A stretch of 32,383 bases of DNA from an uncultured Bacteroidales bacterium. GTDB taxonomy: Bacteria > Bacteroidota > Bacteroidia > Bacteroidales > CAZSJF01. A program made the position numbers and the translations under genes. Numbering within the stretch: the first letter of the stretch is position 1; each line of letters opens with the position of its first letter. The DNA lies in the NCBI GenBank assembly GCA_964606705.1, contig CAZSJF010000002.1, positions 1 to 32,383 on the forward strand, in the 5' to 3' direction. Positions 14,891 to 32,383 of the stretch are shown one piece after another. The notes under the pieces are model-generated. The model had not been told where the DNA came from, searched no databases, and saw only the letters and a list, made by a program, of their open reading frames with translations.

Positions 14891-16885
14891 TTATTTTGTA
14901 TTACCACAGTATTTGTCAATTTCTTTCTGCACCTGAGTTAGTCCAAGCGACAGGGCTTTTCTGAAATCCTCACATGCCTCTTCATTTTTATACCCGCCTT
15001 TGATCTTTGCCAGGCCCCGCATCCCATATGACAGAGGGAAAGAAGGATTTAGTTTTATAGATTTATCCAGATCTGTGACAGCAGTCATGAAATTCCCATT
15101 GTTAAATTCGGCAAAACCCCGGTATGCATAAGCATCTGCATAAAGACTGTCTGACTTTATTACCTTTGAAAAATTTTCAATAGCCTGATTGAAATCATAT
15201 AAATTATACAAAGCAAAACCTTTCTCAAAGTACAGTGTCGGATAATTGAATCCAAGCTCATCTGCCTTTTTCAGGTCTTCGATGGCTCCGCCGAAATCTC
15301 CGTTAAGGTTTTTGCAGTGGGCACGGTTAAACCATACAGTTTCCATGGAAGGGTCAAATTGTATGGCCCTGTTGAAATCTGTTATGGCTTCGTAACAATT
15401 TTCGAGTTTTTCTTTGATAAGCCCCCTGTTGTTAAAATAACTTGCCTCGACAGGCCCGAGAGAAATGGCTTTGTTGAGGTCCGACAAAGCTCTGTTGAGT
15501 TCGCCTGTCTGGAAATATACATATCCGCGGTTTGCATAAGCACGCGGTAAATGCGGATGTAATTTAATGGCTCTGTTAAAATCTTCTAACGCACCTTTTA
15601 TATCGCCGTCTTCTCTTTTTACATCACCGCGGCAGTTGAGTGCTGTATAAGCGTTAGGATTTTTTGACAGTATGTCGTTTAACAGGCTCATGCTTGTATT
15701 CCACACTTTTGCCCGCTCATGTGCATAAACTGCCTGAAATAAAAACAAAGGAATAAGTAAGTACAGAAATATTTTTAATTTAGGTTTGTTTGTTATAAGC
15801 CATTCTGCAAAATAACCGATTATGAAGAAAATACCGATGCCCGAAATGTATATATACCTGTCGGCAATGATATAATTTGATATGGGTATCCATTTTAGGA
15901 ATATGAAAATATTGACCAGGAAAAATAATAATCCGAAAGATATGTACTTATTCTTTGATATTTTACGGTAAAAGAAGTAAAAAAATGCCAGCAGGGAAGG
16001 CAATAACAGCCATAAATACCATGGGGCACCATTATCTGTAAATGAAGGGTAAGCGTAATAAGCAGTCAGGTTCACAGGTATCAGTGTTTTATAGATGTAT
16101 AACAACAGGATATATGGCGGATAGATAAAAACATCCGTATATGACAACCACAAACTGCTTTTGTCAACATATCCGGTTTTCTGCTGTGATAAAATAGCTA
16201 TTATTCCGAATATTACGGCAACTGCAAAAAAAGGCAGTTTAGCCGGCAGCATTTTTCTCTTAAATGCATTATGTCCGCGGAAATAATCTGTTATTATAAG
16301 GCATAAAGGCAAAAGCACTCCCTGTCCTTTGGAAAGGCAGGACAGAATGAAAAGAATGAACGAAGAAACAAAATATTTCTTTTTGCCTGTATCGGAATAA
16401 TTCAGGTACATAAGTAAGGACAGCAGGAAGAAAAAGGCAAATAACACATCCTTGCGCGCTGTTGCCCATGCAACTGCTTCAACATTCATAGGGTGTACGG
16501 CAAACATGATCATGCATATGCCGGCTATCAGCGTTTTTCCTGTCAGCTTGCGGATAAATAAAAATACAAGTACAGCATTTGCCATATGCAGAATAATATT
16601 ATGCAGATGAAAAAAATAAGGTTTTAACCCGAATATCTGGTAATCCACACCAAGTGATATTAATGTAAGAGGGTGGTAATGACCTTCAAAGGAACGTGTA
16701 AATATTTTATGAAGGCTGCTGATGCTGAAATGGCGTATTAATTTATTGGATATTATGTAAATGCTGTCGTCCCAGCTTACAAAATCATTCAACAAACAGG
16801 GATAATAGATGATCAGTATTAAAAAAACTGATGATGCCAGCCATATCCACTTTTTTTTCATAATGCTTTTTCCCGGGAAAAACAT
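14891..16885 (-). CDS. Polytopic membrane protein (GT-C/PMT-like N-terminal domain) fused to C-terminal TPR repeats
   Basis: The first 390 aa or so contain many hydrophobic helices. The C-terminal 270 aa hold repeated 34-aa TPR-like units (A..Y..RG......G....A..DF..AI.L.P). An alternative ATG lies at 16861. Confidence 0.7.
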   Translation of the reverse strand: MFFPGKSIMKKKWIWLASSVFLILIIYYPCLLNDFVSWDDSIYIISNKLIRHFSISSLHKIFTRSFEGHYHPLTLISLGVDYQIFGLKPYFFHLHNIILHMANAVLVFLFIRKLTGKTLIAGICMIMFAVHPMNVEAVAWATARKDVLFAFFFLLSLLMYLNYSDTGKKKYFVSSFILFILSCLSKGQGVLLPLCLIITDYFRGHNAFKRKMLPAKLPFFAVAVIFGIIAILSQQKTGYVDKSSLWLSYTDVFIYPPYILLLYIYKTLIPVNLTAYYAYPSFTDNGAPWYLWLLLPSLLAFFYFFYRKISKNKYISFGLLFFLVNIFIFLKWIPISNYIIADRYIYISGIGIFFIIGYFAEWLITNKPKLKIFLYLLIPLFLFQAVYAHERAKVWNTSMSLLNDILSKNPNAYTALNCRGDVKREDGDIKGALEDFNRAIKLHPHLPRAYANRGYVYFQTGELNRALSDLNKAISLGPVEASYFNNRGLIKEKLENCYEAITDFNRAIQFDPSMETVWFNRAHCKNLNGDFGGAIEDLKKADELGFNYPTLYFEKGFALYNLYDFNQAIENFSKVIKSDSLYADAYAYRGFAEFNNGNFMTAVTDLDKSIKLNPSFPLSYGMRGLAKIKGGYKNEEACEDFRKALSLGLTQVQKEIDKYCGNTK

Positions 16886-16992
16886 AAAATATAAGTTCCC
16901 TTAAAGGTGATTTTTGTGTTTTTTATCCAAAATTAAAACTTTAAAGATGTAAAAGTATATAATATGAAATTTATTTTATTTAAATAATTATG

Positions 16993-17000
16993 TAATTTTG
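16993..17000 (+). promoter_or_regulatory. Candidate -7 box (TAnnTTTG) for metK
   Basis: TAATTTTG lies 46 nt upstream of the ATG at 17046. Confidence 0.4.
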
Positions 17001-17045
17001 CAGTTAGAATAGAAGTATTTGATTATTAACTTAAAAATATTTAAA

Positions 17046-18393
17046 ATGGGATATTTATTTACGTCAGAATCCGTTTCGGAAGGTCACCCGGATAAAGTAG
17101 CAGACCAGATATCAGACGCGCTGTTGGATGAGTTTTTAAGATGGGACCCGGAATCAAAGGTCGCATGCGAAACCCTTGTTACAACAGGATTAACTGTGTG
17201 TTGGGTGTGTTTGGGGGGTGGTTTGCAGCGGCGAAGTCAAAACTGCAGGTTATGTTGATATTCAGAAAATAGCCAGAAAAGCTATTTATGACATAGGATA
17301 TACAAAGTCCGACTATAAATTTGATTCGGAAGCATGCGGTGTGATATCAACGATACATGAACAGTCACCGGATATAAACCAGGGTGTTGTAAGGCAGAAA
17401 AAAGAAGACCAGGGTGCCGGAGACCAGGGCATGATGTTCGGCTATGCCAATAAAGACATGGATAACTATATGCCTCTTCCTCTGGAACTATCACATATTT
17501 TGTTGCAGGAACTTGCTGCTATCCGCAGGGAAGGCAAAGTTATGAAATATCTGCGCCCCGACTCAAAATCACAGGTTACCGTTGAATATGACAATAACGG
17601 GAAACCAAAAAGAATAGACACTATCGTCGTTTCAACCCAGCATGATGAATTTATATTACCGAAAAGTTGCTCTGAAAAGGATATAAAATCTGCTGAGAAA
17701 GCAATGCAGGATAAGATAAAAGAGGATGTTGAAAAAATCCTTATACCAAGAACCAAGAAAACTTTACCCGAAAGGATCAATAAGCTTTTTCAGAAAAATT
17801 ATAAATTGTATGTTAACCCTACAGGAAAATTTGTAATTGGCGGCCCGCACGGAGATACAGGCCTTACAGGAAGAAAAATCATTGTTGACACTTACGGTGG
17901 AAAAGGCGCACATGGCGGCGGGGCTTTCTCAGGAAAAGACAGCTCTAAAGTTGACCGCTCGGCAGCTTATGCGGCAAGACATATAGCCAAAAATCTTGTG
18001 GCAGCAGGTGTTTCCGATGAAATCCTGGTTCAGGTTGCTTATGCCATTGGCATTGCCCAGCCTGTAGGATTGTATGTCAATACTTTCTGTACGTCAAAAC
18101 TTAAAATTGCAGACAGCGAAATAGCAGAAAAAGTAAGCAAGATCTTCGACATGCGCCCCTATGCAATAGTGAACAGGTTCGGCCTTAAAAACCCAATCTT
18201 CCAGAAAACAGCTTCATACGGACATTTTGGAAGAAGCAACTATGTGAAAGAAGTGGAAGTTTACTATAAGAACAAAGATACTTATACTAAAAAAGTAGAT
18301 GGCGTAGATAAGACCTTTAAAAAAGTTGAATTCTTTGCATGGGAAAAGCTTGATTATGTTGATAAGGTAAAAAAGGAATTCGGCCTGAAATAA
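17046..18393 (+). pseudogene. metK: S-adenosylmethionine synthetase, reading frame broken by a 25-nt insertion (possibly an assembly artefact)
   Basis: [28 protein letters not shown]...[10 protein letters not shown] (frame 0) continues as [16 protein letters not shown]... (frame +1). Further on are GAGDQGMMFGYA and GGGAFSGKD.SKVDRSAAY. Removing 17193-17217 gives an ungapped match to the E. coli MetK layout ...ACETYVKTGMVLVGGEITT.... Confidence 0.9.
17193..17217 (+). other. 25-nt GT-rich insertion ACTGTGTGTTGGGTGTGTTTGGGGG, adaptor- or primer-like
   Basis: It sits exactly between codons TTA (Leu) and GTG (Val) of metK. Positions 17198-17215 are the exact reverse complement of 32366-32383, the last 18 nt of the window. 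Confidence 0.85.
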
Positions 18394-18448: not shown

Positions 18449-18982
18449 ATGCAAATAACTTTATCTGACCTTGAAAAATCTATCAGGACGATTCCTGATT
18501 TTCCCAAAAAAGGGATCATGTTCAAAGACATAACCACTGCCCTGAAACGGCCGGAGATGTTCAACTTTATGGTTGAGACCATCTATGATTACTACAAGGA
18601 CAGTAAAATAACAAAAGTTGTAGGCATTGAATCACGTGGTTTCATATTGGGCAGTGCCCTGGCATACAAAATGGGAATTGGTTTTGTCCCTATAAGAAAA
18701 CCCGGAAAACTGCCTGCAGAAACATATTCAAAAACATACACTCTTGAATATGGCGAAGATTCCATCGAAATACATAAAGATGCATTATCAGAAAAAGATA
18801 TTGTCCTGCTGCACGACGACCTTCTGGCTACAGGAGGCACAATGTCAGCTGCAATAGAGCTTGTAAAAATATTTAATGTGTCGGGAGTAAAAGTTAATTT
18901 CCTGTGTGAGCTTTCTTTCCTGAAAGGAAGAGAATTACTCGGCAAATATGGCGTGGATGTTTTTTCTTTGTTAAAATTATAA
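18449..18982 (+). CDS. apt: Adenine phosphoribosyltransferase
   Basis: IRTIPDFPKKGIMFKDIT is present, together with the PRPP-binding motif VLLHDDLLATGGT. The 177-aa length is typical. Confidence 0.9.
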   Translation: MQITLSDLEKSIRTIPDFPKKGIMFKDITTALKRPEMFNFMVETIYDYYKDSKITKVVGIESRGFILGSALAYKMGIGFVPIRKPGKLPAETYSKTYTLEYGEDSIEIHKDALSEKDIVLLHDDLLATGGTMSAAIELVKIFNVSGVKVNFLCELSFLKGRELLGKYGVDVFSLLKL

Positions 18983-31904: not shown

Positions 31905-32306
31905 TTAATAATTTTTAATGAATGGCTTGACAAATCCTTCGCTACGGTCGTTAATCAGGCGGACAAGATAATAACCTGCCGGCAACTCATCGGTTGATAT
32001 TGAAATGACCGATGAAACAATGCGGGATGGCTCTGTTGTTTTCAGCAATTTACCTGTGATGCTGTATATTTCAACAGAACGAATGGTTCGTAAAGAACTA
32101 GGTATGCTTATAAACAGATTATCAGCTACAGGATTTGGGTATAACTGGAAAGACTGATTTGACGAAATGGTATTGTTGACATATGTTGTTAACGGTGAAA
32201 CAACCAGAAGTTGATTTACAAGAGGGTTTGTAACAACTGTATTTTCATACATATTCGGCCACTGAACAACGACAGAGTCAACAGTAGTGTTTGTGTCGAT
32301 AGAAAA
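31905..32306 (-). CDS. T9SS cargo protein, C-terminal part only (5' end lost at the fold-back and contig end)
   Basis: The CTD is QLYPNPVADNLFISI...GYYLVRL. The minus-strand frame stays open upstream of the track Met (32252) through 32306 and on to the window end, where the sequence becomes an inverted copy of itself. Confidence 0.6.
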   Translation of the reverse strand, partial: FSIDTNTTVDSVVVQWPNMYENTVVTNPLVNQLLVVSPLTTYVNNTISSNQSFQLYPNPVADNLFISIPSSLRTIRSVEIYSITGKLLKTTEPSRIVSSVISISTDELPAGYYLVRLINDRSEGFVKPFIKNY

Positions 32307-32359
32307 GTTCAGTGGCCGAATATGTATGAAAATACAGTTGTTACAAACCCTCTTGTAAA
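32215..32359. repeat. Perfect 53-bp inverted repeat (arms 32215-32267 and 32307-32359, 39-nt loop), a fold-back at the contig end
   Basis: TTTACAAGAGGGTTTGTAACAACTGTATTTTCATACATATTCGGCCACTGAAC and its exact reverse complement were read directly from the sequence. Confidence 0.9.
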
Positions 32360-32383
32360 AAACAACCCAAACACACCCAACAC
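32360..32383. other. Terminal tail AAACAACCCAAACACACCCAACAC, adaptor- or primer-like, sharing an 18-mer with the metK insertion
   Basis: Positions 32366-32383 are the reverse complement of 17198-17215. The tail is not part of the fold-back arms. Confidence 0.6.

Follow-up and report, generated by a model that had tools for sequence, protein, structure and literature searches.

The stretch of DNA analysed here, referred to as the window, comprises 32,383 nucleotides of an assembly from an uncultured Bacteroidales bacterium (C2:1-32383) and contains the metK gene, which encodes SAM synthetase, in two parts on the forward strand. The 5′ part (17046..17196; delimited from PF00438, the open reading frame listing and the sequences of relatives) starts with the ATG at 17046 and is readable as coding sequence up to 17192. 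The next four bases, ACTG at 17193-17196, are either native, in which case they belong to T and V codons like those of the closest relative, or filler. The 3′ part (17227..18393; delimited from PF00438 positions 50-99, PF02772 and PF02773) is certainly template-derived from 17227 onward. In the open reading frame list, the metK start is held by an upstream frame of 79 codons (17019-17258) that then leaves the frame of the gene, and the remainder of metK lies in an open frame of 391 codons (17218-18393) ending in ...DKVKKEFGLK and a stop codon. The neighbours of metK are, upstream and on the minus strand, a gene for a TPR-repeat protein of 664 residues (14891-16885) and, downstream, one for a 177-residue phosphoribosyltransferase (18449-18982). 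Rfam returned no match to any RNA element or riboswitch at E <= 1 in 16700-17400, and no known SAM riboswitch was detected at the same threshold in the 160-nt region directly upstream of metK (16886-17045). Nothing in these surroundings suggests a mobile element.

The two parts fit together as a single protein. Positions 17046-17192 match the Pfam profile S-AdoMet_synt_N (PF00438) from profile position 2 to 47 (E 9e-24), and positions 17218-18390 match the same profile from 50 to 99, followed by the central (PF02772) and C-terminal (PF02773) domains. Thus the join is gapless in profile coordinates, and the N-terminal, central and C-terminal S-AdoMet_synt domains are present in order, and the GHPDK motif agrees with that of all 96 readable relatives. 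The spacing of TTG, five residues and GE is likewise the same in 96 of 96 (81 found by pattern and 15 by eye, in a count that leaves out three further loci without an N-terminus), 19 of 19 genome relatives among them. Relatives read TTGL-TV-CSGEV or TTGL-VV-CSGEV at the junction. The earlier note had described metK as split with no gap at the join, and both the profile positions and the spacing bear this out.

The 3′ part is 60-79% identical to the MetK proteins of relatives, and this locus is the sole metK match in the assembly. No sequence from the same species was found for the native junction: the best GTDB relative, all GTDB relatives being of other families, has 75% protein identity and the best metagenome relative 79%, and the native junction is accordingly modelled on relatives. 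Since the profile is contiguous and the spacing invariant, a net removal of 25 nt would restore a normal MetK of ~440 residues. An insertion of 22 nt, which would leave one extra codon, was ruled out by the same invariant spacing and contiguous profile. Judged from these comparisons, the metK of the organism is almost certainly a normal, uninterrupted gene of ~440 codons.

Primer sequence at the junction and at the window end

Within the window, the 18-mer GTGTTGGGTGTGTTTGGG has exactly two matches, at 17198-17215 on the forward strand and at 32366-32383 on the reverse strand. Only 0.02 copies are expected by chance, and two or more matches were obtained in 0 of 100 shuffles. The recurrence is real, and the earlier statement that the 18-mer inside metK is the reverse complement of the last 18 nt of the window, beyond chance, is confirmed. 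The sequence around 17180-17240 reads ...ACAACAGGATTA ACTG TGTGTTGGGTGTGTTTGG GGGGTGGTTTGC AGCGGCGAAGTC..., in which 17197-17214 is identical to the constant part of a whole-genome-amplification (WGA) primer, 5′-TGTGTTGGGTGTGTTTGG-K10-N2, printed in PMC10781638 and PMC11187207. The whole 30-nt primer (18 constant bases, K10 and N2) lies at 17197-17226 on the forward strand. Its constant 18-nt part, that of the WGA universal primer, occupies 17197-17214 as an exact match to the published oligo, and its degenerate tail occupies 17215-17226, with K10 = GGGGTGGTTT, all ten K positions being G or T, and N2 = GC. Of the 18-mer shared within the window, 17 nt therefore belong to the constant part, and the remaining base comes from the degenerate tail, where the two copies agree by accident.

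In one of the two papers that print this primer, Klenow polymerase extends it on fragmented single-cell DNA, after which PCR follows. PMC4833346 lists the same 18-mer as a 'WGA-specific' adapter for trimming, and variants of it are used in PMC6961581 and PMC10168098. A longer universal primer that contains the 18-mer is given for the GenomePlex WGA and TransPlex WTA kits in bioRxiv 10.1101/2023.07.29.551099. The constant 18 nt are identical in the kit primer and here, whereas the kit primer is extended at its 5′ end by the four bases GTGG and has a tail of N9, and the version found here, as in PMC10781638 and PMC11187207, has ten G/T and two random positions after the constant part. The copies in this assembly start at the T of TGTGTT and carry K10N2: 249 terminal copies have one base upstream of the 17-mer core, in every case the primer's own T, and a second base is present in 4. 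They thus correspond to the version in those two papers and not to the GTGG/N9 form. The suspicion raised earlier that the 18-mer is a synthetic oligo is in this way substantiated by an exact match to a published WGA universal primer, the K10N2 tail included.

The second copy lies on the minus strand at 32355-32383 and adjoins a scaffold gap of 10 N. Its tail (32355-32366) is the reverse complement of GTTGTTTTTTAC and reads, along the window sequence, GT followed by ten A/C bases, after which come 17 of the 18 constant bases at 32367-32383. The run of A/C-only bases before the constant part on the forward strand is what the reverse complement of a K10 tail produces. Position 32383 had been taken for a contig terminus; scaffold C2 is in fact 40,819 bases long, with 10 N at 32384-32393, so that the window ends at the edge of a gap.

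The sequence leading up to this gap is itself rearranged. A fold-back chimera spans 32215..32359, with a perfect 53-nt inverted repeat (32215-32267 versus 32307-32359) and a strand switch at the 6-nt microhomology GTTCAG (32307-32312). The repeat shows that the strand being made ran as far as GTTCAG, switched there, and then copied its own upstream sequence back to the primer at the 5′ end of the amplicon. Positions 32313-32383 are an artefact and not genomic sequence in this arrangement. Beyond the gap, scaffold C2 repeats 32284-32312 and then diverges, the divergent sequence being presumably the true continuation. The same configuration is frequent elsewhere: the sequence following the primer is found again in the assembly at 45 primer sites, and at 28 of these the other occurrence is within the same contig, in inverted orientation. 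Scaffold ends thus often carry inverted duplications, by which the assembly is inflated. Chimeras of MDA were reportedly described by Lasken and Stockwell in 2007 as fold-back or inverted products that arise through template switching at microhomology, and the window end, with its 53-nt fold-back and 6-nt microhomology, resembles them, as do the 28 of 45 sites inverted on the same contig. The metK junction differs in that a forward primer stands between collinear flanks and nothing is inverted. No description of this arrangement was found in the papers on the primer cited here.

Primer copies across the assembly and in other genomes

The assembly comprises 3,067,102 bases in 494 scaffolds and is 82.7% complete. 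The 17-mer core of the primer occurs in it 410 times (221 forward, 189 reverse), against 0 times for the core read backwards as a control, and the full 18-mer occurs 358 times. By place, 285 copies lie where a scaffold ends, 102 adjoin N gaps and the other 23 are embedded within contigs, so that 387 of the 410 mark a scaffold end or the edge of a gap, and the earlier expectation that the 18-mer, if technical, would be enriched at the ends of other contigs proved correct. In all 285 terminal copies the 5′ end of the primer is at the scaffold end and the tail points inward, the opposite orientation being found 0 times. Counted by end, primer is present at 286 of the 988 ends of scaffolds and at 102 of the 248 edges of gaps, and 118 of the 124 N runs are exactly 10 N long. 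When all 410 copies are aligned on the core, G or T makes up 97-100% of the bases at positions +1 to +10, and beyond them, starting with +11, the share of G+T is ~0.46-0.55, i.e. genome-like. Such an order, with a constant 18-mer, ten G/T positions of random choice and then unique sequence, points to a degenerate primer and not to a genomic repeat. Tandem full or partial copies are seen at C89:1-70, C94:1-45, C432:1-50 and C469:1-50 and at the ends of C115 and C321, and these look like assembled primer-dimer products.

The 18-mer was found in 0 of 60 genomes of relatives from the same order (54 of them at least 90% complete, and no other member of the family among the 60). When prokaryote genomes were scanned, with each species represented once, it was found at no fewer than 107 loci, in at least 110 copies, in assemblies labelled as several unrelated phyla. 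Among the matches listed, 82 of 110 copies are at record ends of these assemblies, and positions +1 to +10 are 92-99% G/T with ordinary composition after them. Being absent from the 60 relatives and present in unrelated phyla, the oligo tracks a laboratory method and not a lineage.

Several of the 23 embedded copies are primer concatemers. The clearest counterpart of metK is a group-1 glycosyltransferase on C45 (C45:8151-9060, equivalent to L131:1352-2261, minus strand), which reads ...NNCGI, then the 30-nt primer (L131:1509-1538), then PINPKEITDAV.... The interruption is collinear: the Pfam profile Glyco_trans_1_2 is matched up to position 83 before the primer and from 101 to 136 after it. 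Like metK, this gene thus has a false frameshift, the second such case in the assembly. When Pfam was applied to the open frames flanking nine other embedded copies, collinearity was clear only for C45. At the embedded primer of C340 (L136:715-744), ~26 nt of the locus are directly duplicated on both sides; the duplicates differ by one T in a T run, and the junction and the native continuation both have TG. The embedded copy of C372 is a fold-back, and that of C441, whose far flank has stops in all frames, looks non-collinear.

Limits and origin of the metK junction

The earlier note had placed the insertion at exactly 17193-17217. The net gain of 25 nt holds; the exact limits do not, since three native 9-mers fit equally well. 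Nor is the accompanying statement that no flanking bases were lost established: the 12 bases after the constant part, GGGGTGGTTTGC, are primer-derived and lie over the native priming site at 17215-17226. The native gene must have 9 nt between GGATTA and AGCGGC. With H1, GTGGTTTGC (VVC, the boundary of the earlier note), tail and template agree at 9 of 12 positions, and ACTG is left as filler without explanation, such an extension at the 5′ end being seen in no other copy of the primer. With H4, ACTGTTTGC (TVC), the tail matches at 6 of 12 with a 6-nt run at its 3′ end and 1 nt of microhomology, and ACTG and GTTTGC are both native. With H2, ACTGTGTGC (TVC), the tail matches at 5 of 12, with 4 nt of microhomology (TGTG) to the 5′ end of the primer. 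Both VV and TV occur among relatives. The codons of H4 agree with those of relatives, TTA ACT GTT in L038 and TTA ACA GTT TGT in L032, the closest genome relative, whose protein reads L-T-V-C-S.

As a yardstick for the tail we used 45 primer sites at which the template under the tail is visible elsewhere in the assembly. The matches per 12 positions were 4 at one site, 5 at one, 6 at five, 7 at six, 8 at thirteen, 9 at eleven, 10 at five and 11 at three, giving a median of 8 of 12, with 7 of the 45 sites at 6 or fewer. This yardstick favours H1, and the structure of the junction favours H2 or H4. Whichever of the three is chosen, the net gain is 25 nt and the gene is intact. With H2 or H4, five native bases have given way to the 30-nt primer; with ACTG counted as filler, the number is 9.

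We conclude with very high confidence that the GT-rich stretch in metK is an untrimmed WGA primer left in the assembly, that is, a technical artefact. The source DNA was almost certainly amplified by a GenomePlex-type WGA with a primer consisting of 5′-TGTGTTGGGTGTGTTTGG, ten G/T and two random bases, and the primers were left in place before assembly. Most amplicon ends then became scaffold ends or gap edges, and a few primers ended up in the interior of contigs. At metK, the primer would have annealed through its tail GGGGTGGTTTGC so that the amplicon began at 17227, and the primer-bearing 5′ end of this amplicon would have been joined to the sequence directly upstream. A 30-nt primer standing in place of ~5 native bases (9 with ACTG as filler) would yield the net gain of 25 nt and the frameshift. 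The reading preferred earlier, in which metK is intact in vivo, is thus supported by the identity of the oligo, by its degenerate tail, by its distribution, by its absence from the 60 relatives and by its presence in assemblies of unrelated phyla. What speaks against it is that ACTG stays without explanation under the boundary of the earlier note, and that the two boundaries which do explain it (H4 and H2) imply tail matches of only 6 of 12 or 5 of 12, against a median of 8 of 12.

Two accounts of the sequence dispense with an artefact. If the deposited assembly is taken as it stands, the chromosome would carry a real 25-nt insertion, with metK inactivated or recoded, or a tiny GT-rich mobile element. 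We consider this extremely improbable: the stretch is identical to a synthetic primer, degenerate-tail design included, 387 of 410 copies sit at scaffold ends or gap edges, and neither a target-site duplication, whose absence had already been pointed out, nor terminal inverted repeats are visible in 17180-17240. Furthermore, the 18-mer is in 0 of 60 relatives, the same oligo occurs in unrelated phyla, and metK is single-copy here and generally essential. An insertion sequence or MITE was rejected, there being no target-site duplication or inverted repeats, with 23 of 410 copies embedded and none in the 60 relatives; no common structure was seen in the flanks of the other embedded copies. The alternative of a real tiny insertion in an organism without SAM synthetase, entertained before, is unsupported. 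A natural GT-rich repeat, for example G-quadruplex-forming or telomere-like, that breaks the assembly and resembles the primer by accident would also account for so many copies and for their location at the ends of contigs. It does not fit a constant 18-mer with exactly ten randomly chosen G/T bases behind it and unique sequence thereafter, 285 of 285 terminal copies in a single orientation, absence from all 60 relatives searched, or an oligo printed in PMC10781638, PMC11187207 and PMC4833346, and its probability is negligible.

How the primer came to stand between collinear flanks is a separate matter. The join was probably made in a chimeric molecule, through template switching at a short microhomology during low-temperature Klenow-type extension or PCR. 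The most economical mechanism, as we infer it, is a switch in cis: a strand being synthesised along the locus would have changed over to that end of an amplicon, itself born at the locus, which carries the complement of the primer. Alternatively, the same artefact could have been joined by the assembler or gap closer only, with no molecule ever carrying the primer between collinear flanks: a contig ending in the 5′ part of metK and a primer-started contig would have been connected through a TG or TGTG overlap or by paired-read support. The presence of primer at 102 of 248 gap edges, together with 118 of 124 N runs of exactly 10 N, indicates that the scaffolder routinely set primer-ended contigs side by side, and one such join, closed without Ns, may have given rise to the metK junction; under one reading of the boundary, the first bases of the primer, TGTG, can also overlap native TGTG. 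De Bruijn assemblers, however, require k-mer support for a gapless path. The 26-nt flank duplication of C340 arises more easily from a real chimeric molecule, and there are many fold-back chimeras (28 of 45 sites), which cannot exist except as real molecules. A join by software alone is plausible and on balance doubtful.

Embedded primers are a recurring by-product in this assembly, and it is possible, if somewhat unlikely, that GenomePlex-type WGA reproducibly makes 'primer bulge-in' chimeras. The 3′ end of an amplicon strand, bearing the primer complement, would re-anneal through 1-4 nt of microhomology beside its own priming site and be extended. The flanks would stay collinear with a net ~25 nt inserted between them, and an affected gene would look frameshifted. 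The geometry of both metK and the C45 glycosyltransferase is compatible with such an event.

Consequences for the use of the assembly

The likeness to adaptor or vector contamination is close: a synthetic oligo sits at contig ends and at times internally, where it causes false frameshifts and pseudogenes. Such contamination in public assemblies is flagged by VecScreen/UniVec or by NCBI FCS-adaptor screens. The assembly analysed here serves as a species representative and yet contains 410 untrimmed primer copies, and at least two of its genes, metK and the C45 glycosyltransferase, are falsely frameshifted. This affects whatever gene calls and counts of pseudogenes are made from it, as well as estimates of its completeness and conclusions on pathways. 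This assembly, and other public ones with the oligo, need primer trimming and re-assembly, and apparent pseudogenes beside GT-rich or AC-rich 18-mers in such assemblies are not credible. The value of the result is thus a practical one of data hygiene, and its biological import is small: the locus holds no new mobile element, and SAM synthetase should not be reported as missing from the organism.
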